From an uncultured Coriobacteriaceae bacterium (lineage in GTDB: Bacteria; Actinomycetota; Coriobacteriia; Coriobacteriales; Atopobiaceae), in contig CADAQM010000003.1 in the NCBI GenBank assembly GCA_902790135.1, positions 5,761 to 29,760 of the forward strand: DNA of 24,000 nucleotides, written 5' to 3'. Below, piece by piece: positions 1,036 to 21,885 of this stretch. How positions within the stretch are numbered: the first letter of the stretch is position 1; the number at the start of each line of letters is the position of its first letter. Position numbers and translations under genes: made by a program. The notes under the pieces are model-generated. The model was not told the DNA's origin. It saw nothing but the letters and a program-made list of their open reading frames with translations, and ran no database searches.

Positions 1036-1215
1036 GTGCCACCTCCCTAGATTGACTCCGCATACATGATAGTTGACCGCACACTGTGGAGGATACGTGA
1101 ACCCGATACTTTTTAAGCCAGAAATGGCACAGCGCTCATCCATATGCGGGCGACATAGGCGCGCCGCGCGGAGGGTGACACACAAACTCCCACGGAGAGA
1201 ATGTGTTACGCGCGC

Positions 1216-1271: not shown

Positions 1272-2336
1272 CTAGAGACCAGCCACGAACTCGTCGAGGG
1301 TAGCCTTGGTGTCGGGAACGACGATGTCGCCGCTCTTGATCTTCTCGATGAGGGCGAGGGTCTCGTCGTAGAGGTCGGCGTTGATGGTGTCGAGCACGTC
1401 GTGGGTCGGGGCGATGCCGATGGCGTCCTCAGCAGCACCGAGGATGATGTTGTCGCCGCCGACGATGGAGCCGTCGATGATGCCGTTGGAGACGTTGACG
1501 ACAGCCTCGTCGACCTTCTTGAGGGCGGAGGTGATGATGGTCTTGTAGTCGGGGAACAGGACAGCCTGGTCCTGGTCGACGCCGATGCTCCAGACGCCAG
1601 CGTCATTGCAGGCCTCGAGCATACCCACGCCAGTGCCGCCAGCGGCATGGTACAGGACGTCGCAGCCGTTCTTGATCATCTTCTGGGCGATGGACTTGCC
1701 CTTGGCGGCGTCGCCGAAGGACTCGGCGTACTGGCCCTGGTACTCCACCTTGGTGCCCTGCTCGGCGTTGGCATACTCGATACCAGCGTAGAAGCCGTAC
1801 TCGAACTGCTGGATGGTCTCGGAGCTCATGCCGCCCACAAAGCCGACCTTGCCGGACTTGCTGACGCGAGCCGCGATGTAACCAACGGCAAACGAGGGCT
1901 CCTGAGCCTTGAACAGAACGCCGGTCAGGTTCTCGGCGCCGTTGTCGTTGGTGCCGTCGATGAGGGCGAACTGGACGTCGTCGTTCTGCTCGGCGGCGTT
2001 GTTGACAGCCTCAGCCATGGCGAAGCCGATGCCCCAGATGAGGTCGGCGCCGTCGTCATAGGCCTTGTCGAGGTTGGTGGCGTAGTCGGCGTCCTGCTTG
2101 GACTCGATGTAGGAGACCTCCCAGCCGTTGTCGGCCTCGAGCTGCTGCATGCCGGCCCAGGCGAGCTGGTTGAAGGACTGGTCGTTGACGCCACCGGTAT
2201 CGGTGACCATCTCGATCTTGACGGAGTCGTCGCCAGCACCCTCGCTCGCGCCGCCGCCGCAACCGGCCAGGGCTGCAAGAGCGCCAACACCCATAGTAGT
2301 GGCAAAGGTACGACGGGTCATCTTGGCATCGAACAT
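1272..2336 (-). CDS. BMP-family (PnrA/Med-like) ABC substrate-binding lipoprotein, probably nucleoside-binding
   Basis: The protein starts MFDAKMTRRTFATTMGVGALAALAGCGGG, which has a twin-arginine-like signal and an LAGC lipobox. The body has typical BMP family sequence (VTDTGGVNDQSFNQ..., GFVGGM...). AAGGGAGAG lies upstream of the ATG at 2336. The track ORF extends to 2411, but that extension has no SD support. Confidence 0.9.
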   Translation of the reverse strand: MFDAKMTRRTFATTMGVGALAALAGCGGGASEGAGDDSVKIEMVTDTGGVNDQSFNQLAWAGMQQLEADNGWEVSYIESKQDADYATNLDKAYDDGADLIWGIGFAMAEAVNNAAEQNDDVQFALIDGTNDNGAENLTGVLFKAQEPSFAVGYIAARVSKSGKVGFVGGMSSETIQQFEYGFYAGIEYANAEQGTKVEYQGQYAESFGDAAKGKSIAQKMIKNGCDVLYHAAGGTGVGMLEACNDAGVWSIGVDQDQAVLFPDYKTIITSALKKVDEAVVNVSNGIIDGSIVGGDNIILGAAEDAIGIAPTHDVLDTINADLYDETLALIEKIKSGDIVVPDTKATLDEFVAGL

Positions 2337-2446
2337 ACGCACTCTCCCTTTTCCTGCGCGCCTGCGACCCCATGCCGCAGGTCTGCTATAACCACGGGGT
2401 CTCCCCCGCATTTACCTGAATTCACACACACGAAACACTATAACGC

Positions 2447-3160
2447 TTACTCCGCGTTCTGTGCAGCCACGTCGAGAGCTATTTCCATCATCTCAGTGAA
2501 ACTGTTCTGACGATCCTCGGCCGAGAGGCTTCCATCGCGCAGCACGAGGTCCGAAACGGTCATGATGCCGAGTGCGCGCTTGCCCGCCGCGACGGCATTG
2601 AGGTAGAGCGCGGCAGCCTCCATCTCCACGCCGAGCACGCCCATCGCAGCCCACGCCTCGCTGCCGGAGCGGTCGCTGTAGAAGACGTCGGAGGACAGCA
2701 GGTTGCCCACGTGGTAGCGGGCCCCGCGCGCCTCGGCCGCCTCGACCGCCTGGCGCAGCATGGTGAAGTCGGCGATTGGCGCGATGGTGCCAGGCAGCTT
2801 GTACTGCGCGGCAAAGTTGGAGTCGGTGCAGGCGCCCTGGCCAATGAGGATGTCGCGAAGCTCGACCCCTGGCGCCAGGCCGCCGGCACTGCCAATGCGG
2901 ATGATGGCGTCCACGTCATAGAAGTGATACAGCTCGTACGAGTAGATAGCGATGGAGGGGATTCCCATGCCGCTGCCCATGACCGAGATGCGTTTGCCCT
3001 GGTAGGCGCCCGTATAGCCAAACATGTTACGGACCTGGTTGAAGCAGACGACGTCGCTCAGGTAGTTCTCGGCGACGTACTTGGCGCGCAGCGGGTCGCC
3101 AGGCATGAGCACGACCTTGGCGATGTCGCCCTTCTGTGCGGAGTTGTGAGGCGTAGGCAT
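2447..3160 (-). CDS. deoD: Purine nucleoside phosphorylase, DeoD type
   Basis: MPTPHNSAQKGDIAKVVLMPGDPLRAKYVAENYL...GMGIPSIAIYSYEL...VEMEAAALY closely parallels E. coli DeoD as I recall it. AAGGGAG lies upstream of the ATG at 3160. Confidence 0.92.
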   Translation of the reverse strand: MPTPHNSAQKGDIAKVVLMPGDPLRAKYVAENYLSDVVCFNQVRNMFGYTGAYQGKRISVMGSGMGIPSIAIYSYELYHFYDVDAIIRIGSAGGLAPGVELRDILIGQGACTDSNFAAQYKLPGTIAPIADFTMLRQAVEAAEARGARYHVGNLLSSDVFYSDRSGSEAWAAMGVLGVEMEAAALYLNAVAAGKRALGIMTVSDLVLRDGSLSAEDRQNSFTEMMEIALDVAAQNAE

Positions 3161-3229
3161 GATGCACTCCCTTCGTTCGTCTTTCGGTTCGAGAGCCATG
3201 GTGCCGGAGATGCGGCCCACGGCGAGACA

Positions 3230-4417
3230 TCACGGTTGCAGGATTTCGGAGAGGCGGCTCTCCCCCGTCGCAAGCGGGGTGGCGCCCAGGTAGTCGAGCA
3301 CGGTAGCGGAGAGGTCCGCGAAGGTGGGCAGAACGCCGAGGTCAGCGCCCTGGCGCACGTGCGGGCCAGCAATGAGCCACGGCACGCACTCGCGGCTGTG
3401 GTCCGTGGAGGGGGTCACCGGGTCGCAGCCGTGGTCGGCCGTGATCATCAGCAGGTCGTCGTCGCGCAGCTTTGCCAGCAGCTCGGGCAGTTTGGCGTCA
3501 AAGTAGCTGATCGCCTTGGCGTAGCCGTCCACGTCGTTGCGGTGGCCGTAGATCATGTCGGTATCCACCAGGTTGGTGTAGCAGAGCCCATTGAAGTCGC
3601 GGTCCATCCACGCCAGGGTCTTGTCGATGCCGTCGGGGTTGTCCCTGGTGAGGATGTGGTCGGTGGTGCCCCTGCCGGCAAAGAGGTCGAAAATCTTGCC
3701 CACGGCGAGCACGTCGAAGCCCTCCTCCTTGAGGCGGTCGAGCATCGTCGTGCCCGTCGGCTCGAGCGAGTAGTCGTGGCGGCGCTTGGTGCGCTGGTAG
3801 GGCCACTCGCCCTCAAAGGGACGCGCAATGACGCGACCCACGCCGTGCTCGCCCTGCAGCTGCTCGCGGGCGATGTGGCAGTACTCGTAGAGCTGCTCCA
3901 CGGGCACCACGCTCTCGTGCGCGGCAATCTGGAAGACGCTGTCGGCCGAGGTGTAGACGATCAGCGCGCCGGTCTCCACCTGCTCGCGGCCGTAGTCGCG
4001 GATGACGTCGGTGCCGGAGTAGGGCAGGTTGCAGATGACCTTGCGACCGGTAGCCTTCTCGAAGGGCTCGATCACCTCGGGCGGGAAGCCCTGCGGGTAG
4101 GTGGGGAACGGCCGCGGGCTGATGACGCCCGCCATCTCCCAGTGCCCGACCGTGCTGTCCTTGCCCTGGCTGGTCTCCTGCATGCGCGCAAAGGCGCCGG
4201 TCGGGGCCGCGATGGGCACGAGCGAGTGGTCGTAGACCGACTCGAGAGCGCCGTCGATGTTGCAAAGCCCCAGCTGCGTGAGGTTGGGAATGCTGAAGTG
4301 CGGGCTCGTGGCGCAGGCGCAGAGCGTGTTTGAGCCCTCGTCGCCCCATGCGGCAGCGTCGGGCATCTCGCCGATCCCAAAGCTGTCGAGCACGATGACA
4401 AAGACGCGTTTGCCCAT
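3230..4417 (-). CDS. deoB: Phosphopentomutase
   Basis: The protein starts MGKRVFVIVLDSFGIGEMPDAAAWGDEGSNTL..., and ITADHGCDP lies near the C-terminus, a DeoB hallmark. The ATG at 4417 is in frame with the track ORF, whose upstream 117 codons look non-coding. An AAAGAGAGG SD lies upstream. Confidence 0.92.
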   Translation of the reverse strand: MGKRVFVIVLDSFGIGEMPDAAAWGDEGSNTLCACATSPHFSIPNLTQLGLCNIDGALESVYDHSLVPIAAPTGAFARMQETSQGKDSTVGHWEMAGVISPRPFPTYPQGFPPEVIEPFEKATGRKVICNLPYSGTDVIRDYGREQVETGALIVYTSADSVFQIAAHESVVPVEQLYEYCHIAREQLQGEHGVGRVIARPFEGEWPYQRTKRRHDYSLEPTGTTMLDRLKEEGFDVLAVGKIFDLFAGRGTTDHILTRDNPDGIDKTLAWMDRDFNGLCYTNLVDTDMIYGHRNDVDGYAKAISYFDAKLPELLAKLRDDDLLMITADHGCDPVTPSTDHSRECVPWLIAGPHVRQGADLGVLPTFADLSATVLDYLGATPLATGESRLSEILQP

Positions 4418-4520
4418 GGTCGCCTCTCTTTCCCTTGACCCAATGGTTGCATCGATGATACCGCGCGCGGGCCATATCCCCCGCGATGGTCTACCATGAC
4501 CGGCAGAAGGGAGCTTGACG

Positions 4521-5444
4521 ATGGAGCAAAGACCGTATGTGGTAGTCATCGGCGGCGCGAACATGGACATCTGCGGCCGGCCGACGGGAGAGGTCGTGGC
4601 GGGGGACTCCAACCTGGGGACGGTGCGCCTCTCCCCCGGCGGCGTGGGGCGCAACATTGCCCACAACCTCGCGCTGCTTGGCGTCGACGTGCGCCTGGTC
4701 ACCTGCTTTGGCGAGGATGCGCAGGCAGACGCGCTGGTGGAGAGCTGTGCCGTGGCCGGCATCGACATCGCGCACTCGTTTGCCGTGGCAGGCGGCGCGA
4801 CCTCGACCTACCTGTATGTGACCGACGCGCAGGGCGAGATGCAGGTGGCCATCAACGACATGGCGATCCTTGAGCAGCTGACGCCAGAGCGCGTGGCCGA
4901 GCGGCTGGAGGTCATCCAAGGCGCGGCCGCGGTGGTGGTGGACACCAACGTTCCCGCCGAGACGATCCGCTGGATAGCCGAGCACGTAAAGCGGCCGCTC
5001 TTCTGCGACCCCATCTCCACGGTCAAGGCCCAGCGCGTTGCCGCCGTGTTGGGGTCTTTTTGCACGCTCAAGCCCAACCGGCTGGAGGCGGAGACGCTGA
5101 GCGGGGTTGCCATCACCGACGAAGCAAGCCTTGGCGAGGCGGCCGCTGCGCTTTTGGCCACCGGCCTTGGGCGCGCGTTTGTCTCGCTCGGCTCCAAGGG
5201 CGTGCTTTGCGCCGAGAAGGACCGGCTGGTACGGCTGCCCTTGCTCCCCTGCAAGGTCGTCAACACCACCGGCGGTGGCGATGCCATGATGGCAGGCCTC
5301 GTCTGGGCGTACCTGCAAGGCTTTGACCTGCGCGAATCCGGATTGGCTGGCCTTGCGGCGTCGGCGATTGCCGTGGAGAGCCCAGAGACTGTGAGCCCCG
5401 CCATGAGCGTGGCGGCCCTTGAGGAGCGCATGGGCCTTGCCTGA
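4521..5444 (+). CDS. psuK: Pseudouridine kinase (PfkB family)
   Basis: VVVIGGANMDI...SPGGVGRNIAHNLALLG...TLKPNRLEAETLSG...NTTGGGDAMMAGL matches E. coli PsuK/YeiC motifs nearly verbatim. GAAGGGA lies 8 nt upstream of the ATG at 4521. The gene is followed directly by psuG. Confidence 0.85.
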   Translation: MEQRPYVVVIGGANMDICGRPTGEVVAGDSNLGTVRLSPGGVGRNIAHNLALLGVDVRLVTCFGEDAQADALVESCAVAGIDIAHSFAVAGGATSTYLYVTDAQGEMQVAINDMAILEQLTPERVAERLEVIQGAAAVVVDTNVPAETIRWIAEHVKRPLFCDPISTVKAQRVAAVLGSFCTLKPNRLEAETLSGVAITDEASLGEAAAALLATGLGRAFVSLGSKGVLCAEKDRLVRLPLLPCKVVNTTGGGDAMMAGLVWAYLQGFDLRESGLAGLAASAIAVESPETVSPAMSVAALEERMGLA

Positions 5445-5519
5445 CCGCACAAGGACTCAAATGCTGACGAGAGCCACATACGCGCTATGCTTGTTGTGGC
5501 CAAGACGAAAGGAACGATT

Positions 5520-6461
5520 ATGACCAACCAGAACCAGAACCTCAGCCGCTACCTTGACCTGACGCCTGAGGTCGCCGAGGCGCTTGCCAACAACAAGCCG
5601 GTGGTCGCGCTAGAGTCGACCATCATCAGCCACGGCATGCCCTATCCGCAGAACGTCGAGACCGCCCTGCGCGTGGAGGCCATCGTCCGCGAGCACGGGG
5701 CGGTGCCGGCAACGGTGGCCGTCATCGGCGGGCGACTGCGCGCGGGCCTCACGCCCGACGAGATCGACTACCTGGGGCGCAAGGGGCGCGCGGTGATTAA
5801 GGTCAGCCGTCGCGACCTGCCCGTGGTGGTGGCGCGCGGCCTGGACGGAGCCACCACCGTGGCCTCCACCATGATCGTCGCGGCGTTGGCCGGTATCGAC
5901 GTCTTTGCCACGGGCGGAATCGGTGGCGTGCATCGCGGTGCCGAGACCACCATGGACATCTCTGCCGACCTCGAGGAGCTGGCCATGACCCCGGTCATGG
6001 TGGTCTGCGCGGGGGCGAAGTCGATCCTCGACCTCGGCCTCACACTGGAGTACCTGGAGACAAAGGGTGTGCCTGTGCTGGGCTATGGCACCGACGAGCT
6101 GCCGGCCTTCTACACGCGCCAGAGCGGCTTTGGCGTCGACTACCGCGTGGACACCCCCGCAGAGCTGGCCTCCATCCTGCACACCCAGCGCGAGCTGAAC
6201 TTCCCCGGCGGCATCCTCGTGGGCAACCCCATCCCCGAGCAGTACTCGATGGACAAGGCCGTCATCGACAAGGCCATCGACCAGGCGCTGGCCGAGTGCG
6301 AGGAGCAGGGCATCCATGGCAAGGAGACCACGCCGTTCCTGCTCGCGCGCATCGCCGAGATCACGGGCAACGACAGCCTGAACTCCAACATCCAGCTGGT
6401 GTTCAACAACGTGGCGCTTGGCGCCGAGATCGCCCGCGAGCTCTGCGCCCTGCGAGCATAG
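5520..6461 (+). CDS. psuG: Pseudouridine-5'-phosphate glycosidase
   Basis: KPVVALESTIISHGMPYPQNVETA...GATTVASTMIVAALAGI.VFATGGIGGVHRGAE...VVCAGAKSILDLGLTLEYLET.GVP...SNIQLVFNN tracks PsuG/YeiN along its full length. AAAGGA lies upstream of the ATG at 5520. Confidence 0.92.
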   Translation: MTNQNQNLSRYLDLTPEVAEALANNKPVVALESTIISHGMPYPQNVETALRVEAIVREHGAVPATVAVIGGRLRAGLTPDEIDYLGRKGRAVIKVSRRDLPVVVARGLDGATTVASTMIVAALAGIDVFATGGIGGVHRGAETTMDISADLEELAMTPVMVVCAGAKSILDLGLTLEYLETKGVPVLGYGTDELPAFYTRQSGFGVDYRVDTPAELASILHTQRELNFPGGILVGNPIPEQYSMDKAVIDKAIDQALAECEEQGIHGKETTPFLLARIAEITGNDSLNSNIQLVFNNVALGAEIARELCALRA

Positions 6462-7498: not shown

Positions 7499-8254
7499 CT
7501 ACTCTGCGTCAGGCAGACGTAGCAGGTAGAAGGAGTAGCCCAGCGCAAGGATCAGGCTCACGCCGGGGCCAACCAGCATCGCCATCTGCTCGGATCCGAA
7601 CAGCGCCACCTGAGCGGCTTCATTCTCAAAGATGACCAACGCGTTGTTCACCATGTGGAACACCACGCACGGCCAGAGGCTGCCACCCTTGAGCAGGACC
7701 AGCACCAGCACAAAGCCCACCGACACGGCAAAGACGACCTGCACCAGCGAGGTCAACAGGTCCTGGCCGGTCGCGTTGAACGAATTCACGATGTGACCCA
7801 TGCCAAAGGTGATCGATGAGACCACCACGGCACTCGTGCGGCCGTCCTCATCCATCGCACGGAAGAGGAATCCGCGGAAGATCAGCTCCTCGATATAGCC
7901 CACGCAGCACATGCTGATCACCCAGAACAGGCACTCGGCAGCCGTGCCATCAGGCGCGATTCCAAAGAACAGCTTCTTTACGGCAATGATGGCGATCGGA
8001 AGGTACCACAGCATGCGGCTGGCCGATACGCTGGGCGCACGCAGGCCAAAATGCTCGCCCAGCCCGGAGTGGCGCACCCACGCCCACAGGACCACTGACA
8101 TCGCCAGAAGCACAGGCGCAGTAACCATCTTTTGCGCGCCGAGGTCGAGGGAGAGCGCATCCGCCTCGGAGGCCAGCAGCACGTATGCGACGATCCACGC
8201 AACGGCGAACCAGATGCGGCTCTTCTCGTAAAAACGGTCTAGCAGCTTGAACAT
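7499..8254 (-). CDS. CPBP-family intramembrane glutamic endopeptidase (CAAX protease/bacteriocin-processing family)
   Basis: A polytopic hydrophobic protein carrying the family motifs EELIFRGF, FGMGH and HMVNN. Its start at 8254 overlaps the tetR stop by 16 nt, which suggests an operon with translational coupling. Confidence 0.85.
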   Translation of the reverse strand: MFKLLDRFYEKSRIWFAVAWIVAYVLLASEADALSLDLGAQKMVTAPVLLAMSVVLWAWVRHSGLGEHFGLRAPSVSASRMLWYLPIAIIAVKKLFFGIAPDGTAAECLFWVISMCCVGYIEELIFRGFLFRAMDEDGRTSAVVVSSITFGMGHIVNSFNATGQDLLTSLVQVVFAVSVGFVLVLVLLKGGSLWPCVVFHMVNNALVIFENEAAQVALFGSEQMAMLVGPGVSLILALGYSFYLLRLPDAE

Positions 8255-8820
8255 GGGCTATCGTCCTTTCCTTGCATTGCTCCCACATAGGTGGCCTCGA
8301 GGACACCCGCCACGAGCGCCTCGTCATAGCTCAGAGAGTTGTTGGCGACAAGACTCGCAAACCCGTGCGCCGTGACGAAGATGCCGAGAAACACGCGCTG
8401 CGCATCCTCCACGCCCACGCCGGCTGACTGCGCCACCACTTGCACCATCTCCTGCACCTCCGGTGCGGCCACCATCGATGTCAGGTCCTGCCTGCCGAAC
8501 GCATCGGTCTGGAAGAGCAGCCGGAACAGGCGCGGCTCGTCGTGGGCAAAACGCACATAGTTGAGCCCCAGTTGCATGAGGGGGTCCTGCGCGGTCTCCA
8601 GCCCAGTCATGAGGTACGCACTGTGCAGCTCGTCGATGGCTTGGTAGGCGGCGTCGCGCACCTCCCCCATCGTGGCAAAGTGGTACAGGATCGGCTGGGT
8701 CGAGCAGCCAAGTGCCGAGGCCAAGGCGCGCACGTTGAGACACTCGTGACCCTGCGTTCGCACGAGTTCGACCGCTGCCGCCACTATGTCGTCCGTCGTT
8801 ATGCGAGCCGTTCTGGCCAT
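8239..8820 (-). CDS. TetR/AcrR-family transcriptional regulator
   Basis: The N-terminal HTH region reads ITTDDIVAAAVELVRTQGHECLNVRALASALGCSTQPILYHFATMGEVRDAAY. A GGAGAGG SD lies at 8826-8832. Confidence 0.88.
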   Translation of the reverse strand: MARTARITTDDIVAAAVELVRTQGHECLNVRALASALGCSTQPILYHFATMGEVRDAAYQAIDELHSAYLMTGLETAQDPLMQLGLNYVRFAHDEPRLFRLLFQTDAFGRQDLTSMVAAPEVQEMVQVVAQSAGVGVEDAQRVFLGIFVTAHGFASLVANNSLSYDEALVAGVLEATYVGAMQGKDDSPCSSC

Positions 8821-8837
8821 AGCATCCTCTCCTTTTT

Positions 8838-8851
8838 ATAACAGATGTTAT
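8838..8851. promoter_or_regulatory. Palindromic candidate TetR operator overlapping a candidate extended -10 for the yjjI-side promoter
   Basis: ATAACA-ga-TGTTAT is a perfect 6+6 palindrome immediately upstream of the tetR SD. On the plus strand, TGtTATGTT (8846-8854) has an extended -10 layout. That TetR binds here is inference only. Confidence 0.4.
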
Positions 8852-8888
8852 GTTATCAGTTTTGAGGCAATTGATGAACGTCATCTTT

Positions 8889-9080
8889 GTGACCGGTCCG
8901 CTCACAGGGACGCAACGGGGACTCGTTCCGGCTCCACCAGCGGACCAGTCGCCACTGGTCCGTCCCAGAAGCCGCAACGGGGACTCGTTCCGGCTCCACC
9001 GGCGGACCAGTCGCCACCGGTCCGTCCCAGGAGCCGCAACGGAGGCCGGTTCCGGCTCCATCGGCGGACCAGTCGCCACT
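8889..9080 (+). repeat. Tandem array of about 3.3 copies of a 62-nt unit, each unit forming two hairpins, in the leader upstream of yjjI
   Basis: Units start at 8912, 8974 and 9036, with a partial unit from 8889. Units 1 and 2 differ at only 3 of 62 positions. The period is not a multiple of 3. Each unit contains GCCGcAACG-gggacu-CGUUcCGGC and GGACCAGU-cgcc-ACYGGUCC. Confidence 0.85.
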
Positions 9081-9162
9081 CCTGCGGGTCGGAGCATATC
9101 CCCGAAACGCAATTGCCATCCCCAACGGTCAGTCCACGTCTCGCACACGCCGAGGGGCTATC

Positions 9163-10716
9163 ATGAATGCAACCAACGGCAAGAAACATGCGGAGGCGCA
9201 CATGAGCGAGTTCATGGACATCATCACGGCGAGCAACCTCACCTACGGACAAAAGCTGATTCACCTGGCACAGGCCGCCGAGAACTGCGAGCATCCCATC
9301 CCCACGACGCCCGAGTTCGACTGGTTCTTCGAGCGCGACGCCATCTGCGACATGCACGAGGGCAATGCCCCCTATCGCCCGCGCTACATCTGCTGCGACA
9401 TGGAGCGCTTCGCGCGCCAGGGCAGCGACTTCCTGCGCCTGGACGCCCCCGACAACCTCGACGACCTGCTCATGAACCTGCAGATCCTCTACCAGAACGT
9501 GCCCTCCGTCACCGGCCGCCCCGTCTACGTGGGCCAGCTCGACCGCCTCTTCGACCCCTTCCTGGACGGTCTTTCCGACGAGGAGATCCTGCCGCGCTTC
9601 AAGCGCTTCCTCAACTACATCGACCGCACGGTCGCCAGCGGTTACTGCCACGCCAACCTCGGACCCGAGGACACGCGCGCCGGTCGCCTGCTGCTGCAGG
9701 CCGACGCCGAGGTCCAGAACGCCGTCCCCAACTTCACGCTCAAGTATGAGGAGGGCATCACCCCCGACGACTTCGCCCGTCTCGCCCTCAAGACCTCGAT
9801 GGCCTGCGCCAACCCCGCCTACGCCAACCATCGCATGCACAAGCACACCTACGCCGCGCCCGTCGACGGTCCGGCCGACGGCTACACGGTCGTCTCCTGC
9901 TACAACGTGCTGCCCATCCGCGGCGGCGCCTACTGCCTCGATCGCGTCAAGCTCTCGCAGCTGGCCGACCTCGCCACCTCGCCGGAGCACCTGCTGAACG
10001 AGCTTCTGCCCAACGCCACCGGCGCGCTGCTCGAGTACATGGACGCCCGCATCAAGTTCCTGGTGGAGGACTCCAACTTCTTCCAGACCTCGTTCCTGGC
10101 ACGCGAGGGCCTCATCGAGCGCGAGCGCTTCGTGGGCATGTTCGGCATGATCGGCATGCACGAGTGCATCGAGAAGCTCCTCGGACCCGGCCATGTGTAT
10201 GGCACCGACCCCGAGGCCAACGACCTCGCCGACCAGATCATGACCAAGATGACCAACCAGGTGCTAGCTTGGGACGCGCCCTACTCCGAGATCGGCAACG
10301 GCCGCTACATGATGCACGCGCAGGCCGGCTTTGGCGACCAGACCTCCTCGACGCCCGGCGTGCGCATCCGCGTGGGCGATGAGCCCGAGGTCTTCTTCGA
10401 CCACCTGCGTCATTGCGCCCGCATGCACCGCTTCTTCAAGGCTGGCGTGTCCGACATCTTCCCCGTCGAGCCCACGGCCGCACAGAACGTGGACGCCCTG
10501 CTAGACGTCATCAAGGGCGCCTTCGCCATCGACGACACCTACCTCTCGTTCTATCCCTCCGACTCCGACCTCGTGCGCATCACGGGCTTCCTCGTCAAGC
10601 GCTCCGAGATGGAGAAGTTCGCCCGCGGCGAGGCCGTGCTTGCCGACACCAGCCACGACGGTGAGGGCAACTGGCGCGCCAACCATCTGGCCGACCGCAA
10701 GGTTCGCCTGGGATAA
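9163..10716 (+). CDS. yjjI: YjjI-family glycyl radical enzyme (DUF3029), substrate unknown
   Basis: At 517 aa it is the same size class as E. coli YjjI. A C-terminal glycyl-radical fingerprint, VRITGF, places the Gly at residue 475 (nt 10585-10587), 42 aa from the C-terminus. A YjjW-type activase follows directly. A GAGGGG SD lies 6 nt upstream of the ATG. The family assignment rests on my recollection of the family, not on a search. Confidence 0.8.
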   Translation: MNATNGKKHAEAHMSEFMDIITASNLTYGQKLIHLAQAAENCEHPIPTTPEFDWFFERDAICDMHEGNAPYRPRYICCDMERFARQGSDFLRLDAPDNLDDLLMNLQILYQNVPSVTGRPVYVGQLDRLFDPFLDGLSDEEILPRFKRFLNYIDRTVASGYCHANLGPEDTRAGRLLLQADAEVQNAVPNFTLKYEEGITPDDFARLALKTSMACANPAYANHRMHKHTYAAPVDGPADGYTVVSCYNVLPIRGGAYCLDRVKLSQLADLATSPEHLLNELLPNATGALLEYMDARIKFLVEDSNFFQTSFLAREGLIERERFVGMFGMIGMHECIEKLLGPGHVYGTDPEANDLADQIMTKMTNQVLAWDAPYSEIGNGRYMMHAQAGFGDQTSSTPGVRIRVGDEPEVFFDHLRHCARMHRFFKAGVSDIFPVEPTAAQNVDALLDVIKGAFAIDDTYLSFYPSDSDLVRITGFLVKRSEMEKFARGEAVLADTSHDGEGNWRANHLADRKVRLG

Positions 10717-10789
10717 AACGCAGACTAACAAGTTTCTCCAGGGGGCGGCCACAATGCCGTCCCCTCTCTGTCTCAAAGGGGGCACGCGC

Positions 10790-11629
10790 ATGGAGCTCTT
10801 TGCGCCGGTCAACAAGGTGATTCCGTTTTCGCTGGTAGATGGGCCAGGGTCGAGGTGCTCGGTCTTTCTGCAGGGCTGCAACATTGCCTGCGCGTACTGC
10901 CACAACCCCGAGACACAGAACCTCTGCGAGGAGTGCGGGCTTTGCGTCGAGCAGTGCCCGGCCGGTGCGCTCTACCGCGAGGGCCGTCACGTGCGCTGGA
11001 ACAAGGACGCCTGCGTGCAGTGCGACACCTGCATCCACGTGTGCCCGCACAAGGCGAGCCCCAAAATCGAGTGGCTCACGCCGAGCGAGGTGTTCGCGAT
11101 CGTGCACTCCTACCAGCCCTTCATCCGCGGCATCACCGTCTCGGGCGGCGAGTGCATGCTGCATGCGCACTGGATGCGCGAGCTGTTTGCCCTCTGCCGC
11201 GAGGCTGGGCTGGGGACGCTCATCGACAGCAACGGCTGCGTGCCCTTCGAGGGGCACAACGACCTGCTCGACGTGGCTGACGGTGTGATGCTCGACGTGA
11301 AGGCGTGGGACGAGGGTACGTTTGCCCAGCTCACCAGTGGTGACGTGCGCGTGGTCAAGCGCAATCTGGCATTGCTTGCCGAGCGCGACAAGATCGAGGA
11401 GCTGCGCATTGTGGTGGTGCCTGGCTGGAACGACCCCGAGGCCACGATCGCCGGAATCGCGGACGTGCTGGACGAGAAGCTCGCCCAGACCAAGCTCAAG
11501 CTCATTCGCTTCCGCAGGTTTGGCGTGGTGGGAACGCTCGCAAACGCAGACTCCCCCACCGACGAGCGCATGGGCGAGCTCGAAGCGCTCGCGCGAGAGG
11601 CGGGCTTTGGCCAGGTAGAGCTGCGCTAG
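10790..11629 (+). CDS. yjjW: YjjW-type glycyl-radical enzyme activating protein (radical SAM)
   Basis: MELFAPVNKVIPFSLVDGPGSRCSVFLQGCNIACAYCHNPE contains the CX3CX2C radical-SAM motif. Two ferredoxin-like motifs follow: CEECGLCVEQCP and CVQCDTCIHVCP. GITVSGGE is also present. AAGGGGG lies upstream of the ATG at 10790. Confidence 0.85.
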   Translation: MELFAPVNKVIPFSLVDGPGSRCSVFLQGCNIACAYCHNPETQNLCEECGLCVEQCPAGALYREGRHVRWNKDACVQCDTCIHVCPHKASPKIEWLTPSEVFAIVHSYQPFIRGITVSGGECMLHAHWMRELFALCREAGLGTLIDSNGCVPFEGHNDLLDVADGVMLDVKAWDEGTFAQLTSGDVRVVKRNLALLAERDKIEELRIVVVPGWNDPEATIAGIADVLDEKLAQTKLKLIRFRRFGVVGTLANADSPTDERMGELEALAREAGFGQVELR

Positions 11630-11646: not shown

Positions 11647-12645
11647 TCAACCTGCGATAACGCCACGCAGACGCGCCTTGGTCGCCTCATCGGCAAAGCT
11701 TGCGTCCACCGCATTGAGCAGCAGCTGTGTGACCTCCGCGTTACCAAGCCCCAGCACGTCAGACAGCAGCATGAGCTCGCGACCAACCCAGGTGTTTGAG
11801 ACGGAGTTGTTGTCCGAGCAGATGACGACCTTGCAACCTGCCTCCAGCAGCTCTCCAACGGCGTGCACGCCAACGCCCTCCAGCGCGCCGGTCTGCAGCT
11901 CGGAGGTGTAGCACACCTCGATGGGCACCTGACGCTCGGCAAGCTCGCGCACGAGGGCAGGGTCCTCCGCAGCACGCACGCCGTGGCCGATGCGCGCCGC
12001 ACCCATGGCAAGCGCGTCGCGCACGCTCTGCGGACCGTCTGCCTCTCCCGCGTGGATGGTGAAGGGCACACCCAACTCACGGGCGCGCTCGAAGACCGGC
12101 GCGAAGTCTGCCGTGGGGAAGATCGCCTCGGCACCGGCCAGGTCAGCGGCCACCACCTCGTTGCCCAGATACTCCCCGGCAAGCTCGATCGTCTCGAGAT
12201 TGGCCGCCAGATTGTCGGCACCGCGCATGCAGCACAGGATGAGACGTGCCTCAAAGTCCGAAGCTCGCAAGCCCTCAAGCGCCGCCTCCACCACCTGACG
12301 CTGCGTCAGCCCTCGCTCGCAGAACGACTGCGGGGCAAAGCGCAGCTCGGCGTAGGCGTATCCGCGCTCCTTGAGCTCGTCCTCGAGCAGGCGGATGTGC
12401 TCGGCCACCTGCTCGCGCGTCTGGATAAGCGAGAGCGGGAAGACGAACTTGTCCAGATACTCGTTGAGGTCCTCGCAGCTGTCCCCCACCGAGATGCGAT
12501 CGAAGACCTCCGCATCAGAGAGCGCATCGAGCGGCGTGCCACCCAGCTCCGCCAGACGACGGGCTGCCGAGATGCTGATGGAGCCATCGCTGTGCAGGTG
12601 CAGGTCGATGAGCCGCCCGCGCAGGCGCTCGAGACTAACCGCCAT
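11647..12645 (-). CDS. add: Adenosine deaminase
   Basis: IDLHLHSDGS is the metal-binding HxH motif, together with FTIHAGE and ICSDNNSVSN. The length is 332 aa. The start lies 3 nt after the deoC stop, so the two genes are probably coupled. Confidence 0.88.
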   Translation of the reverse strand: MAVSLERLRGRLIDLHLHSDGSISISAARRLAELGGTPLDALSDAEVFDRISVGDSCEDLNEYLDKFVFPLSLIQTREQVAEHIRLLEDELKERGYAYAELRFAPQSFCERGLTQRQVVEAALEGLRASDFEARLILCCMRGADNLAANLETIELAGEYLGNEVVAADLAGAEAIFPTADFAPVFERARELGVPFTIHAGEADGPQSVRDALAMGAARIGHGVRAAEDPALVRELAERQVPIEVCYTSELQTGALEGVGVHAVGELLEAGCKVVICSDNNSVSNTWVGRELMLLSDVLGLGNAEVTQLLLNAVDASFADEATKARLRGVIAG

Positions 12646-12648
12646 GCC

Positions 12649-13290
12649 CTACCCCTCGACGATTGCGATGCTGGCGCTGGTTCCCAGCCTGTCGGCACCC
12701 GCAGCCACCATGGCCTCGGCCTCGGCGCGCGTGTGCATACCACCCGCGGCCTTGACCTTGCAGCGGTCGCCCACCGTCTTGCGCATGAGCTCGACGTCGT
12801 GCACCGTGGCGCCGCCGGTCGAGAAGCCCGTGCTCGTCTTGACGAAGGCAGCGCCAGCTGCCACGGAGCACTCGCAGGCGCGCACGATCTCCTCGTCGGT
12901 GAGCAGGCAACACTCGAGAATGACCTTCACCGCGGCATCGCCCGCAGCCTCGACCACGGCAGCGATGTCGCGCGTGCAGTACTCGTCGTCACCGTCCTTG
13001 AGACGACCCACGTTGATGACCATGTCGATCTCGGTGGCACCGTCGGCGACGGCCTGCGCGGTCTCGGCCGCCTTGGCCAGCGTGGAGCAGGCACCCAGGG
13101 GGAAGCCCACCACCGTGGTCACGCCCACGTTCCAGCCTGCCACCAGGGCGGCGGCAAGCGAGGTCCAGCACGAGTTGACGCACACGGTGGCAAAGCGATG
13201 GGCACGAGCCTCCTCACACAGGCGCTCGATGTCGGAGCGGCGTGCGTCCTGCTTGAGAACGGTGTGGTCGATAAGGGCGTTGAGCTGCAT
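12649..13290 (-). CDS. deoC: Deoxyribose-phosphate aldolase
   Basis: LIDHTVLK...FATVCVN...VVGFPLG...EIDMVINVG...VKVILE...AFVKTSTGF (Schiff-base Lys context)...VKAAGG. A strong AGGAGGGG SD lies upstream of the ATG at 13290, and the upstream 12 codons of the track ORF are probably not translated. Confidence 0.9.
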
Positions 13291-13393
13291 GTTGTCTCCC
13301 CTCCTGCGTTGTTGGCGTTCGTTCATGAGTATACAGCCGCCCGCGGACAGTTAGCCACTGGCCAAAGGCGATGCACGCGGATCGGTCGCCCCG

Positions 13394-14446
13394 CTAGGTG
13401 ATGAGATTCGCAAGAATCATCGGGATCATGAACAGCAGCCACCCCACAAGGAGGGTGATGAGACGCTTCTTCTCCGCGTGAACCGCGATGTACTCCCTGA
13501 TCAGGGCGCTGGGCCAGTAGTAGAACGCCACGCGGCTCCCAATGCCCACGCACCTGAGGCCAATCCTGCGGCAGTACCTGAGCGCCCGGTAGACGTGGTA
13601 GTTGCTGGTGACGAGCGCCGTGTAGCCGCCACGGCCGCCGCTCAACTCGTCGATGATCGCCTTCGAGTTCCTCAGGTTCTCGAAGGTCGTTGCGGACTGG
13701 TCCTCGCGGGCGATCTGCTCCGCCGGGATGCCCTTCTCAAGCAGGTACTTCTCCATCGCCTCGGCCTCGGAGATGCTCTCGTCGGAGCCCTTGCCGCCAG
13801 AGGGGATGAGGATCGGTGGGGTCGGATCCCTGTGGTAGACCGCGATTGCCTTGTCGATCCTGTCGGCCAGAAGCTTTGAGACACGGTCGCCACCGAGAAG
13901 GCCAGCGCCATGGATGATCACGTAATCAAAGTCCCTCCTCAGCGGAAGCACCTGAAGAAAGACGCAGTAGGTCATGAACACAACGAAGGTCATCGAGAAG
14001 TAGAAGACCGAGGCACTCAGGAACATGCCGAAGCGCGTGAACTCAATGAAGTGACTCTTGCCGTCCAAACCGGGCACGGAGATCTGCGGCATTACCAATG
14101 CAAGATAGGCCGCGATCTCGCCGATGCCCACCACCAGGCCGAGGCCAAGCGAGAGCAGGTTTGCCAGGCTGTGCCCCTCGCGCCTGATCATCACCACGCC
14201 GTTGATCACCAGAAAGAACGGCACGATCAGAAGCGTGAGAAAGACGGCAAACATGAGGATGATCATGACATGTCCCTGATACTTGCCGGCAACGAAGGAA
14301 AGGGCGACGATCGAGACCATGAGCGTGACAAAGAGCAGGTAGCAGTTGCGGTACCTGCTCCTGTCCCTTGCAAAGGAAAAGGCGGTCAACGCCCAGAGGA
14401 TGAGCGTTAAGGCGGTATACACGGGATTCATCTTATGGCTCGCCAT
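13394..14446 (-). CDS. DUF218/YdcF (ElyC/SanA-like) family membrane protein
   Basis: About six N-terminal TM helices are followed by the YdcF core: YVIIHGAGL...LIPSGGKG...SEAEAM..YL...GIP...I..EDQSATTFENL...LVTSNYHVYRA. The start is uncertain: 14446 or 14431, while the track ORF runs to 14659. Confidence 0.75.
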   Translation of the reverse strand: MASHKMNPVYTALTLILWALTAFSFARDRSRYRNCYLLFVTLMVSIVALSFVAGKYQGHVMIILMFAVFLTLLIVPFFLVINGVVMIRREGHSLANLLSLGLGLVVGIGEIAAYLALVMPQISVPGLDGKSHFIEFTRFGMFLSASVFYFSMTFVVFMTYCVFLQVLPLRRDFDYVIIHGAGLLGGDRVSKLLADRIDKAIAVYHRDPTPPILIPSGGKGSDESISEAEAMEKYLLEKGIPAEQIAREDQSATTFENLRNSKAIIDELSGGRGGYTALVTSNYHVYRALRYCRRIGLRCVGIGSRVAFYYWPSALIREYIAVHAEKKRLITLLVGWLLFMIPMILANLIT

Positions 14447-14717
14447 CCAATCCGTGCCTATTCTCGTCGCTCGCACGAGCACCGCATGCCCGCCGCAACC
14501 ACATCGGACGCACTTAATCGATAATGCACCAGCAATGGTATCAAAGCGCGCCACCTCCCCCCGCTGGCACGTTAAGCACGTGCGTGGACGCACCGCATCA
14601 AATGTGATACGGTCTCCATCGTATGGCACCGTCGGAGGAGGCATCCGGAACATGAGCACGCTTCAAAGCTAGGCGCACGCTTTCGATCTACAGACAACCT
14701 ATGCTGAGGAGCACCTC

Positions 14718-16621: not shown

Positions 16622-17724
16622 CTACCCGATCGCGCTAAAGAAGCGCATCGCATTCTCGAAGAAGAGCTTGCGGGCGATCTCCTCGCCAAACCGGTCTGCG
16701 AATCGATCGAACAGGTACGTCTGGGACGAGCAGTCGGCAACCCAAGTCGGAACGTCAGCGCCGTCGCGGTCGGAGCCCAGGGCAATCACGTCCTCGCCGC
16801 CAATCTCAATCCAGTGGTCGACATGAGCCGCCAGCTCGTCGAAGGTGTAGGCGTACCCTTCCGTGCGCACGAAGTCCTGATGCAGGTTGAGCCCCACGAC
16901 CCCGCCTCGCTCGGCGATAGCAGAGAACTGCTTGTCGGTGAGATTGCGCAGGTGATCGCACATGGCGCGCGCGTTCGAGTGCGTCGCGATGTACGGCTTG
17001 GTTGCTATCTCATCAAGCTCCCAGAAGCCCTTCTCGTTGAGATGCGACACGTCCACCACGATCCCGTGCGACTCGAAGGCGGACACGCACTCCTTGCCAA
17101 AGTCCGTGAGTCCCTGGTCGGGATACTGGTTTCCGCTGCCCAAGGCGTTCTTGTAGTTCCACGTCAGGCCGGCGATCAGCACGCCGTCGTTGGCGAACTC
17201 GTCGATGACCTCGATGCCTGCGTCCAGACACGCGGAGTTCTCAACCGTGAGGATGGCCGCAACCTTGCCCTCGTCCAGAATCGCGGGATGTCCGCAAACG
17301 AGCGCGCCTGGGTAAACTGGTCGCTGAACTGCTCCATCTGGTCCTTGAACCACGCGACCGCCTCGTGATACCAGTCGATGGTGGAGATGTCGGGGGCCTC
17401 CTCGCCCTCCGTGTCGGGAATCCAGACGGCGTAGCACTGGGCCCATCGGACGTCGCCGATGCGGTCGGCTGACACCTGTCCGTTGTTGCTGGCCATCGTC
17501 CCACTGAACTTGTTGTGGAACCCCGAGTAGGGCTTGCGGGCAACCATGCCCAGGCTGTCGATGGTGTCGGCATGCATGTCAAACGACTCGATGGCCTGCG
17601 TGGCACCATCAGCTCCGAGGCCTCCCCGCCCCGTCGCGGCACATGCCACGTTGGCGAGCGCCCCAATGCCCAGCGCTCCGGACAGCAACGCCCTGCGCGT
17701 CATCTTTGCCTGCAAGATTGTCAT
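16622..17724 (-). pseudogene. Membrane dipeptidase (peptidase M19 family) with a Tat-like signal, disrupted by a frameshift near 17283-17290
   Basis: Two overlapping track ORFs (17176-17724 and 16622-17446) carry the N- and C-terminal halves of a single M19 dipeptidase. The N-terminal half reads FDMHADT...QARSFADIP; the C-terminal half reads AILDEGKVAAILTVEN...THSNARA...DVIALGSDRDG. The total span is 1103 nt, which is not a multiple of 3. The frame switch maps to ...gcggacatcccgcgattctggac... Confidence 0.75.
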
Positions 17725-18592: not shown

Positions 18593-21836
<3,244 letters not shown>

Positions 21837-21885
21837 TCATTTGAGCCTTGGGCATAGTAAACTTGAAGCAGCATCGTCTAGGGGG

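Follow-up and report, generated by a model that had tools for sequence, protein, structure and literature searches.

A YjjI-YjjW glycyl radical enzyme system encoded among nucleoside catabolism genes, with a predicted fold nearest to class III ribonucleotide reductase

The 24,000-nucleotide stretch of Coriobacteriaceae DNA analyzed here (the window) carries a two-gene yjjI-yjjW operon at positions 9202-11629 that encodes a glycyl radical enzyme (GRE) and its dedicated radical-SAM activase. Comparative genomics across the YjjI family suggests that YjjI very probably works within nucleoside and pentose catabolism. The best explanation overall, which we hold tentatively and rate somewhat short of an even chance, is that the pair forms a nucleoside- or pentose-catabolic GRE with chemistry like that of a ribonucleotide reductase (RNR) on a ribosyl substrate. 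Relatives occur in at least 578 GTDB species genomes, and no paper assigning a substrate or function to YjjI, YjjW, or DUF3029 was found in the literature searched. What had been an anecdotal adjacency in E. coli can now be expressed in numbers, as an association with nucleoside catabolism that spans several clades.

Results

A yjjI-yjjW operon in the window

The yjjI product matches both profiles of its family along their length, PF11230 (YjjI-like) with 648 bits over profile positions 1-485 of 485 and TIGR04040 with 576.9 bits (cutoff 498.3) over positions 2-497 of 497, and the window gene is a further, full-length member of a known orphan family of oxygen-sensitive radical enzymes. These matches bear out the initial annotation, which had read a forward-strand open reading frame at 9163-10716 as YjjI; the frame is real. 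Its proposed length of 517 amino acids is correct for the frame opened at ATG 9163, but the gene probably spans 9202-10716 and encodes 504 residues, because close homologs are all about 504 amino acids long, with the second methionine of the longer reading as their first residue, and because a GGAGG motif lies 6 nt 5' of ATG 9202. ATG 9163 was dropped as the start for these reasons, and Gly475, Cys246, and Cys215 of the 517-residue reading are Gly462, Cys233, and Cys202 of the 504-residue protein.

The activase gene yjjW lies 74 bp 3' of yjjI, and its product scores 358.5 bits against TIGR04041 (activase_YjjW; cutoff 250.2), so that the profile check proposed earlier for both families exceeded the curated cutoffs of TIGR04040 and TIGR04041. 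A mechanically called open reading frame had placed the activase start at TTG 10640, which we replaced by ATG 10790. Counted from this codon, the CX3CX2C motif and the two CX2CX2CX3CP clusters that had been described for YjjW begin at residues 30, 46, and 75 (Table 1).

The neighboring genes named in the initial annotation (deoB, deoD, the BMP/ABC system, psuK-psuG, add, and deoC) were all confirmed by NCBIfam or Pfam profiles, with psuK scoring below its cutoff. The BMP and ABC ATPase genes follow deoB-deoD downstream and share their strand, and add and yjjW converge, their stop codons 17 bp apart. Among Atopobiaceae-lineage loci, deoC directly follows yjjW in 38 of 56. Where the window has a TetR-family regulator, most relatives have one of the Crp/Fnr family, and a Crp/Fnr cluster is found upstream of yjjI in 7 lineages. 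The 20-bp palindrome of an upstream repeat had no match in any of 182 yjjI loci.

Table 1. Positions of genes and sequence features in the window and the evidence for each
Feature	Position	Strand	Evidence
ABC ATPase, cut by window end	1-1185	-	PF00005, 137 bits
BMP-family substrate-binding lipoprotein	1272-2411	-	clusters with BMP proteins of 6 lineages
deoD, purine nucleoside phosphorylase	2447-3220	-	NF004489, 337 bits; TIGR00107, 288 bits
deoB, phosphopentomutase	3230-4417	-	NF003766, 494 bits
psuK-like PfkB kinase	4515-5444	+	NF007355, 228 bits, below cutoff 540
psuG, pseudouridine-5'-phosphate glycosidase	5487-6461	+	PF04227, 455 bits
TetR-family regulator, divergent from yjjI	8239-8820	-	PF13305 (TetR_C_33)
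yjjI, YjjI-family glycyl radical enzyme, 504 aa	9202-10716	+	PF11230, TIGR04040, homolog length, GGAGG
Probable thiyl-radical cysteine codon, Cys233 (Cys246 in 517-aa numbering), motif SC[YF]N	9898-9900	+	alignments, AF2 hairpin
Radical glycine codon, Gly462 (Gly475 in 517-aa numbering), motif DLVRITGF	10585-10587	+	alignments, AF2 hairpin
yjjW, YjjW-family radical-SAM activase, 279 aa	10790-11629	+	TIGR04041; ribosome-binding-like stretch AAAGGGGG 5' of ATG
Radical-SAM CX3CX2C (Cys30, Cys34, Cys37 of YjjW)	10877-10900	+	motif scan; PF04055, PF13353
Two ferredoxin-like CX2CX2CX3CP (Cys46-Pro57, Cys75-Pro86), predicted auxiliary 4Fe-4S	10925-11047	+	motif scan; Fer4 families
add, adenosine deaminase	11647-12645	-	TIGR01430, 232 bits, cutoff 217
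deoC, deoxyribose-phosphate aldolase	12649-13326	-	TIGR00126, 260 bits, cutoff 117

Nucleoside catabolism genes recur near yjjI

We surveyed 182 yjjI loci from 34 YjjI lineages and grouped their neighbors by unsupervised clustering. In high-GC DNA, longest-ORF gene calling was unreliable, choosing antisense frames over add, deoC, and psuK, and for loci of this kind we relied on tblastn or on precomputed Pfam assignments. The initial annotation had proposed a functional link between yjjI-yjjW and nucleoside genes and suggested looking for enrichment of such genes around yjjI orthologs. The link found support without being universal: in 14 of the 34 lineages, and in 11 of the 25 whose flanks extend for 8 kb or more, yjjI has a core nucleoside gene no farther than 10 kb away. 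The median distance is 1.2 kb, and each of the four major clades of the YjjI family tree includes linked lineages. The corresponding binomial P values range from 1e-8 to 1e-5, with assumed backgrounds of 5-10% that are an analytic estimate and not a measured control.

The activase adjoins yjjI in 31 of 34 lineages and, together with generic ABC ATPases, is the commonest neighbor. Nucleoside families rank next, comprising PNP/UDP phosphorylases (8 lineages), PF02653 permeases (7), BMP proteins (6), PfkB kinases (6), DeoB (5), DeoC (4), Cdd (3), NupC (2), and IU-nucleoside hydrolases (2). Other recurrent neighbors are regulators and generic families (Crp/Fnr, aminotransferase, FBA, esterase), so that across the 182 loci every function-specific family recurring beside yjjI belongs to nucleoside or pentose catabolism. 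Linked lineages differ in their transporters (BMP-ABC, ECF, or NupC) and in their cleaving enzymes (DeoD, Udp, nucleoside hydrolase, or PsuG). Gaps between the nucleoside genes and yjjI-yjjW are often just 0-100 bp on the same strand, and operon-like spacing is seen in Hungatella hathewayi (YjjI-YjjW-BMP-ABC-...-Udp-DeoD-DeoC-Cdd) as well as in L164, L171, L129, and L111.

About half of the lineages have no nucleoside genes near yjjI. The linkage was not found in Proteus, in Shewanella (where Aldedh and ADH genes are present instead), or in another gammaproteobacterium, nor was it found for an archaeon, a PKS-bearing bacterium, or ruvAB-queA contexts. The position of E. coli K-12 yjjW-yjjI beside deoCABD, as given in the initial annotation, was verified in NC_000913. 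Proteus has lost the deo adjacency while keeping the flanking smp-serB-radA-nadR synteny, and since this adjacency is lacking in Proteus, Shewanella, and the other gammaproteobacterium, the E. coli arrangement alone is weak evidence. FNR activates yjjI in E. coli, and in Yersinia the gene is induced under anaerobic conditions, which argues for an anaerobic role of YjjI.

Radical glycine and thiyl cysteine

The initial annotation had located a VRITGF glycine at residue 475 and two candidate thiyl-radical cysteines at 215 (SMACANP) and 246 (VVSCYN), and all three positions are correct in the 517-residue reading. The glycine is indeed the conserved one, since it is invariant among 23 family-wide representatives (pairwise identity at most 50%) and aligns with Gly465 of E. 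coli YjjI. Arg459, Gly462, Ser232, Cys233, and Asn235 are all invariant in this set, Gly462 is likewise invariant in alignments A1, A3, and A5, and the window protein contains both the Gly loop R-[IV]-[TS]-G-[YF] and the Cys loop S-C-[YF]-N. In an AF2 model (pLDDT 92.7, pTM 0.92), Gly462 sits at the tip of the hairpin E457-460/E463-466 and Cys233 at the tip of the finger hairpin E228-231/E235-238. In living cells, a radical-trapping probe labeled Gly465 of E. coli YjjI (bioRxiv 10.64898/2026.08.13.742689), and through this alignment Gly462 is the predicted glycyl radical site of the window enzyme.

Of the two candidate cysteines, only Cys233 holds up: it is the sole cysteine invariant family-wide, it shares a loop with Cys384 of NrdD in both profile alignments, and it is probably the thiyl-radical cysteine. 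Cys202 was rejected because, despite about 90% conservation in close relatives, its position holds Ser, Ile, Thr, or other residues elsewhere in the family. The representatives further share invariant Arg61, Arg248, Arg388, His150, and His372, which would be compatible with an anionic, polyhydroxylated substrate.

A predicted fold nearest to class III ribonucleotide reductase

The predicted fold of YjjI is nearest to that of class III RNR. In a Foldseek search of the model against the PDB, class III RNRs take the first 26 places (E as low as 1e-17, TMq 0.62-0.76), with pyruvate formate-lyase (PFL) and dehydratases ranking behind them (E ~1e-11). All 94 matches listed at E<=1e-3 are GREs, in keeping with the ten-stranded barrel and the Gly and Cys hairpins typical of this superfamily. 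A PDB sequence search returned no solved structure of the YjjI family and only a marginal NrdD match (8p23, E 0.06). Profile comparison by hhalign between the YjjI family and E. coli NrdD gave a probability of 90.9% (E 1e-6) with the more diverse alignment A5 but only 7.6% with the shallow alignment A3, and since the register of the Cys loop shifts by about 9 residues between the two results, we limit the claim for the cysteines of YjjI and NrdD to their lying in the same loop.

Several accessories of the reductase are absent. E. coli NrdD C175 faces a gap beside the invariant PYRPRY motif of YjjI in both profile alignments, neither of which has a counterpart of NrdD Met382, and no second invariant cysteine was found among the 23 representatives. 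The window protein has no NrdD-type zinc-ribbon cysteine cluster, with no cysteine at residues 405-504, and it lacks the ATP cone and allosteric specificity region, the hhalign match beginning at NrdD residue 120. The formate-dependent reduction of NrdD cannot run as such in YjjI because the counterparts of C175 and Met382 are missing, and reduction of the thioredoxin/disulfide type is unlikely because there is only one invariant cysteine. With the catalytic glycine and the probable cysteine fixed, YjjI thus emerges as a predicted RNR-like fold stripped of reductase accessories.

Discussion

A possible role for YjjI and competing explanations

Under anoxia, GRE activases cleave S-adenosylmethionine and abstract a hydrogen from the conserved glycine, and the glycyl radical is relayed to a finger-loop cysteine whose thiyl radical takes a hydrogen from the substrate. 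In the same way, YjjW would cleave S-adenosylmethionine to abstract hydrogen from Gly462, and the radical would pass to Cys233, whose thiyl form would attack the substrate. Judging from fold and context, this substrate may be the ribosyl part released by the neighboring enzymes, with RNR-like chemistry, an assignment that we regard as possible but doubtful. Candidate sources are DeoD, Udp, nucleoside hydrolase with PfkB kinase, PsuK/PsuG, Add, Cdd, and DeoB; because these enzymes cover purines, pyrimidines, and pseudouridine alike, their common product is a pentose and not a base. Ribose-5-phosphate, ribose-1-phosphate, or the ribonucleoside itself could then undergo abstraction of the 3-hydrogen followed by loss of the 2-hydroxyl, yielding a 2-deoxy-pentose derivative. 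With formate or some other external reductant, this product would be 2-deoxyribose-5-phosphate, whereas a redox-neutral reaction would give its 3-keto form. DeoC with aldehyde or alcohol dehydrogenases could lead on to glyceraldehyde-3-phosphate and acetaldehyde.

In its most specific form, which we think unlikely, this proposal makes YjjI a descendant of the RNR lineage that has moved off nucleotides and deoxygenates free pentose phosphate or a ribonucleoside in a ribose-to-deoxyribose shunt to DeoC. If so, anaerobes could ferment the sugar moiety of nucleosides derived from RNA, with DeoC delivering glyceraldehyde-3-phosphate and acetaldehyde, YjjI would be without precedent among RNR-like enzymes in having a catabolic substrate other than a nucleotide, and a function would be found for an E. 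coli GRE that was called uncharacterized as late as August 2026. GREs have repeatedly been found behind important anaerobic gut chemistry (choline, hydroxyproline, propanediol, and anhydro-sugars, as PDB titles also reflect), and confirmation would mean a new way for rumen and gut bacteria to ferment RNA and nucleosides. The search for the substrate is narrowed to a few commercially available pentose compounds. Two observations run against the ribosyl explanation: deoC is adjacent in only 4 lineages, and organisms with a pentose phosphate pathway have no obvious need for a 2-deoxygenation step.

The neighborhood evidence would apply equally if YjjI served nucleoside catabolism on something other than the common pentose, such as a particular or modified nucleoside (e.g., a 2'-O-methyl or another RNA-derived one), a glycosidic or phosphate bond to be cleaved, or a nucleobase. 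Such a substrate would fit the dedicated importers encoded within the yjjI operons, namely BMP-ABC, NupC, and an ECF module whose S component is of the CD3073 type. It would also fit a PF00756 esterase recurring in 3 lineages and, at single loci, sulfatase-like, Nudix, and MTA/5'-dAdo-deaminase-family amidohydrolase genes adjoining yjjI. Yet the esterase, sulfatase, and Nudix genes are each limited to few lineages, and partner enzymes for purine, pyrimidine, and pseudouridine routes speak against one special base, so that we consider this explanation improbable. A stripped-down RNR proper, reducing NTPs or NDPs to supply DNA synthesis with deoxynucleotides, would account for the best fold matches, the NrdD-type Gly motif, and a weak match to PF13597 (NRDD). 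This match reaches only 22.3 bits against a gathering score of 26.2 and covers residues 189-372 of the window protein, however, and YjjI lacks the bottom-face cysteine, the zinc-ribbon cysteines before the Gly loop, and the ATP-cone or specificity region. Its neighbors are catabolic and not replication genes, and E. coli has nrdDG besides. Garriga et al. 1996 are said to have found that nrdD mutants cannot grow strictly anaerobically despite the presence of yjjI, and a role in DNA precursor synthesis appears very improbable altogether.

Co-localization could also reflect shared regulation or genomic hitchhiking, with a substrate unrelated to nucleosides, e.g., in nitrogen metabolism or another anaerobic pathway. 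The many lineages without nucleoside neighbors would fit this possibility, as would the loss of deo adjacency within Enterobacterales (Proteus), and clade A (lineages 0, 3, 4, 5, and 18) could share one ancestral arrangement. Moreover, E. coli yjjI is co-expressed with nitrate and nitrite genes, clusters with narG, and has FNR and NarP-like motifs, and a 2011 prediction of "nitrogen assimilation" had this co-expression as its sole basis (PMC3228777). Against mere hitchhiking, the linkage recurs in four major clades with varying transporter classes, cleaving enzymes, and gene orders, an analytic estimate puts chance linkage at a few percent per lineage, same-strand gaps are often as short as 0-100 bp, and no other functional theme recurs near yjjI across the 182 loci of 34 lineages. 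An unrelated substrate is therefore hardly probable, and we tentatively favor a nucleoside- or pentose-catabolic GRE acting on a ribosyl substrate.

Comparison with known systems

GRE eliminases (PflD/YbiW on 1,5-anhydrohexitol-6-phosphates, glycerol/propanediol dehydratase, CutC, and HypD) have the GRE barrel in common with YjjI (Foldseek E ~1e-11) and, like it, use one catalytic cysteine. They carry a glutamate two residues after this cysteine (C-x-E) that acts as a general base, whereas this position is the invariant Asn235 (SCYN) in YjjI. With about 770-870 residues by Foldseek target lengths, they are also longer than YjjI, whose predicted structure resembles NrdD more closely. PDB entry titles (8id0, 8id7) describe PflD and YbiW with bound sugar phosphates, so there is precedent for phosphorylated sugars as substrates of orphan GREs in E. 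coli. The PFL system PflB/PflA belongs to the same superfamily, and YjjW is homologous to the PFL activase (TIGR02493, 130 bits) but has two additional ferredoxin-like clusters; PFL itself has a Cys418-Cys419 pair (entry 1cm5) where YjjI has Ser232-Cys233. NrdD has, like YjjI, a single thiyl cysteine on the finger loop, and the YjjI Gly motif, RITGY, occurs unchanged in P. copri NrdD. In contrast to NrdD, YjjI is about 200 residues shorter (504 amino acids for the window protein and 712 for E. coli NrdD) and has a catabolic genomic context.

The closest known counterpart is E. coli YjjI/YjjW (b4380/b4379; TIGR04040/TIGR04041; PF11230, formerly DUF3029), which belongs to the same family by curated cutoffs. 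The window YjjI falls into a separate clade of gut Firmicutes and Atopobiaceae, and its operon, unlike that of E. coli, is convergent with add-deoC, flanked by deoB-deoD-BMP/ABC and psuK-psuG, and adjoined by a TetR regulator in place of an FNR/CRP-controlled divergent promoter region. Nevertheless, the two YjjI proteins are 38% identical over their full length, and both systems have the RxTG[YF] Gly loop, the SC[YF]N Cys loop, the order of yjjI followed by yjjW, and proximity to deoC.

Gene boundaries and catalytic residues

The initial annotation had recognized a 517-aa YjjI glycyl radical enzyme (GRE) in a forward-strand ORF at 9163 to 10716, and family models uphold both the ORF and its identity: the protein covers the whole of PF11230 (YjjI-like) at 648 bits and scores 577 bits against TIGR04040 (YjjI family glycine radical enzyme; curated cutoff 498). 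The start is probably ATG 9202, because GGAGG lies 6 nt 5' of it and because the closest homologues, almost all of 500 to 509 residues, have alignments that begin at the second methionine of the ORF. The following gene matches the YjjW model above its cutoff and encodes the motifs from which a radical-SAM activase had been predicted, i.e., a CX3CX2C motif (residue 30) and a pair of CX2CX2CX3CP clusters (residues 46 and 75). The pair is an additional member of the family known through the curated YjjI and YjjW models.

Three residues had been singled out earlier, and their positions are exact in the 517-aa numbering (Gly475 of VRITGF, Cys215 of SMACANP, and Cys246 of VVSCYN; Gly462, Cys202, and Cys233 from the preferred start). 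Across 23 aligned sequences, representing all full-length 50%-identity YjjI clusters from 1.84 billion proteins, Arg459, Gly462, Ser232, Cys233, and Asn235 are invariant. Gly462, which aligns with Gly465 of E. coli YjjI, is the conserved glycine predicted to carry the radical. The two proposed thiyl cysteines fared differently: Cys233 is invariant, whereas Cys202 is substituted by Ser, Ile, Thr, and others and is therefore ruled out as the catalytic residue. In the predicted structure (AF2; pLDDT 92.7, pTM 0.92), Cys233 and Gly462 sit at the tips of hairpins 228-231/235-238 and 457-460/463-466, respectively, which in this model is the arrangement expected for GRE Cys and Gly loops. YjjI and YjjW are a GRE and its dedicated activase with both loops conserved.

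The neighbors named initially (deoB, deoD, add, deoC, BMP/ABC, and psuK-psuG) were all matched by family models, the psuK-like kinase below its equivalog cutoff, and the rumen Coriobacteriaceae/Atopobiaceae MAG RUG12252 is syntenic with the window at 90% to 96% nucleotide identity. The repeat between the TetR gene and yjjI may be an operator array or REP-like element; two copies contain the 20-bp near-palindrome GGACCAGTCGCCACYGGTCC (0.01 chance matches expected), which has no exact match across 182 related yjjI loci. The split M19 dipeptidase likely reflects a frameshift, pseudogene, or sequence error, and the presence of a DUF218 protein near yjjI in both the window and Proteus is probably coincidence.

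Table. Features of the window and, where indicated, of other yjjI loci
Feature	Position	Strand	Remarks
62-bp tandem repeat	8911-9080		2.7 copies, 91% match; GGACCAGTCGCCACYGGTCC at 8942 and 9004
yjjI	9202-10716	+	504 aa; start inferred from homologue lengths and upstream GGAGG
yjjW	from ATG 10790 (most plausible start)	+	directly after yjjI; TIGR04041, 358 bits (cutoff 250)
deoB			NCBIfam, 494 bits
deoD			NCBIfam, 337 bits
Adenosine deaminase gene			NCBIfam, 232 bits
deoC			NCBIfam, 260 bits
psuG			PF04227, 455 bits
psuK-like PfkB kinase			228 bits
BMP lipoprotein gene			followed by ABC ATPase gene
DUF218 (PF02698) membrane protein	13394-14659	-	
M19 membrane dipeptidase	16622-17724	-	overlapping ORFs 17176-17724 and 16622-17446 in differing frames; second matches Pfam model positions 100-318 only
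GH1 genes (6-phospho-beta-glucosidase-like)	18593-20065, 20247-21830, 22906-window end (24000)		three paralogs
Aldo/keto reductase fused to 2x[4Fe-4S] ferredoxin domain	21781-22713		interrupts the GH1 series
DUF218 protein, Proteus (L082)	3773-4912		
Aldehyde dehydrogenase, Shewanella piezotolerans WP3 (L101)	8264-9784	same as yjjI	directly 5' of yjjI; zinc alcohol dehydrogenase adjoining
Nudix hydrolase gene (L169)	7744-8214		between yjjI and yjjW, few-base overlap with each
YczE/YitT-like five-TM protein (L075)	2669-3328		NF052291, 84 bits, under cutoff

Nucleoside genes near yjjI across lineages

In E. coli K-12, yjjW-yjjI indeed lies next to deoCABD, as stated in the initial annotation, in divergent orientation. 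We collected yjjI loci from GTDB species genomes (80), metagenomes (80; for diversity, the search used an alignment led by the family's most divergent representative), and look-ups of distant representatives (18). Together with the window and the locus of E. coli, the set comprises 182 loci, which form 34 lineages at 70% YjjI identity. Neighboring ORFs were clustered unsupervised, ranked by lineage count, and only afterwards named via Pfam or NCBIfam. YjjW leads this ranking (31 lineages), followed by generic ABC ATPases (14), PNP/UDP phosphorylases (8), PF02653 permeases and Crp/Fnr regulators (7 each), BMP proteins and PfkB kinases (6 each), DeoB and aminotransferases (5 each), DeoC (4), cytidine deaminases, YczE/YitT-like membrane proteins, FBA, and PF00756 esterases (3 each), and NupC and IU-nucleoside hydrolases (2 each); no second recurring metabolic theme appeared among the clustered neighbors of these loci.

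In 14 of 34 lineages (11 of the 25 whose flanks reach 8 kb or more), yjjI has a core nucleoside gene no farther than 10 kb away, at a median distance of 1.2 kb. If the background is assumed to be 5% to 10% per 20-kb window, an analytic estimate and not a measured rate, this corresponds to a binomial P of 1e-8 to 1e-5. Nucleoside-linked lineages occur in all four major YjjI clades of a neighbor-joining tree. Given this assumed background, the counts and their spread support the earlier reading that the adjacency is functional and not coincidental, and we are fairly confident that YjjI is linked to nucleoside or pentose catabolism.

Several layouts are operon-like (bp gaps in angle brackets): YjjI<-4>YjjW<48>BMP-ABC-perm-perm-...-Crp<26>Udp<40>DeoD<28>DeoC<-17>Cdd in Hungatella hathewayi, YjjI<8>YjjW<98>NupC<83>DeoD in a Pasteurellaceae-like lineage, LacI-ECF(S,T,A,A')-Udp-(DeoB)-Crp-YjjI-YjjW in Caproiciproducens and Christensenellaceae, and YjjI<4>YjjW<10>ABC-perm-perm<35>Cdd<-23>DeoB (L164), YjjI-YjjW-BMP-ABC-perm-perm-amidohydrolase-PNP (L171), and PfkB-IUNH-IUNH-PNP-x-YjjI-YjjW (L129) at three further loci. 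Among metagenomic loci L106, L108, L109, L112, L116-L124, and L137 of the Pasteurellaceae-like lineage 1, one layout is yjjI-yjjW-nupC-deoD; a sister layout has an intact yjjI without adjoining activase, nupC, or deoD, and the yjjI encoding P0253 (L096) also has no adjoining activase.

The nucleoside link is not universal. The Proteus locus keeps its smp-serB-radA-nadR side and lacks the deo genes, and the link is likewise absent at the loci of Shewanella piezotolerans, another gammaproteobacterium, an archaeon, a PKS-bearing bacterium, and several low-GC lineages. S. piezotolerans instead has aldehyde and alcohol dehydrogenases upstream, and the gene order in strain WP3 hints at a possible aldehyde product. 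An iron alcohol dehydrogenase is found near yjjI in 23 of 56 Atopobiaceae loci. Other neighbors include the YczE/YitT-like protein of lineages 1, 3, and 4 (L075, L111, and others), PF00756 esterases in three Firmicutes lineages, and, preceding the pair on archaeal contigs (L086-L088), an alpha/beta hydrolase together with an AdoMet-decarboxylase-like gene, the latter also present near yjjI in bacterial lineage 14. The gene inserted into the pair at L169 encodes a Nudix hydrolase, and enzymes of this class liberate ribose-5-P from substrates of the ADP-ribose type. In E. coli, one 574-aa "protein" (P0124; contig of 2.9 kb) combines PF11230 with PF01791 (DeoC-type aldolase), probably as an assembly or gene-calling artefact since yjjI and deoC are divergent neighbors.

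Candidate substrate and expression

Between them, the neighboring enzymes process nucleosides of the purine (Add, DeoD) and pyrimidine (Udp, Cdd) types as well as pseudouridine (PsuK/PsuG), so that the sole product common to their cleavage by phosphorolysis or hydrolysis is the pentose, which we infer to be ribose, ribose-1-P, or, through DeoB or a PfkB kinase, ribose-5-P. DeoC accepts only 2-deoxyribose-5-P; in both Atopobiaceae and E. coli its gene is the one nearest to the yjjI-yjjW pair, and in Hungatella it is part of the same operon. In the GRE superfamily, the radical passes from SAM via Gly and Cys to the substrate. As the RNR-like fold suggests, YjjI could abstract the 3-H of a ribosyl substrate with subsequent loss of the 2-OH, and its product would connect ribose derivatives to the DeoC branch. 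Only one Cys is invariant, so the reaction would be restricted to a redox-neutral form yielding a 3-keto-2-deoxy product or to a form that draws on a small external reductant (e.g., formate) in a manner other than that of NrdD (class III ribonucleotide reductase, RNR). We propose ribosyl 2-deoxygenation tentatively and give it somewhat less than an even chance. The further invariant residues of the 23 representatives (Arg61, Arg248, Arg388, His150, His372, Glu53, Glu302, Asp114, and Asp141) would be compatible with a phosphorylated sugar substrate.

Anaerobic use of YjjI fits published expression data: yjjI is directly activated by FNR in E. coli and induced anaerobically in Yersinia. A CRP ChIP peak lies within the shared yjjI/deoC intergenic region. 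Openly accessible full-text literature yielded neither an assigned substrate nor a published nucleoside association, and the only functional prediction found there, "nitrogen metabolism", was a guess made from co-expression in 2011 (PMC3228777). For this long-standing orphan enzyme, the value of our finding lies in the specific and cheap experiment that it points to.

Relationship to known glycyl radical enzymes

The best 26 Foldseek matches of YjjI in the PDB are all class III RNRs from P. copri, phage T4, S. thermophilus, and T. maritima (E 1e-17 to 1e-12, query TM-score 0.62 to 0.76); PflD, PFL (pyruvate formate-lyase), and dehydratases come next at E ~1e-11. Profile-profile comparison likewise relates the family to E. 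coli NrdD (90.9% probability, E 1e-6, 336 columns), and YjjI shares the Gly motif LxRITGYLV of P. copri NrdD. However, YjjI scores below the gathering score of PF13597 and lacks the NrdD Met two residues before the Cys, the Zn-ribbon cysteines ahead of the Gly loop, and the N-terminal allosteric region; the second active-site Cys175 also has no counterpart, with a gap next to the invariant PYRPRY in both alignments. The Cys-Cys pair of PFL is missing as well, and where GRE eliminases carry Glu at Cys+2, YjjI has an invariant Asn. YjjI is therefore a separate compact family (~20 full-length clusters at 50% identity) with an RNR-like fold and a single catalytic Cys.
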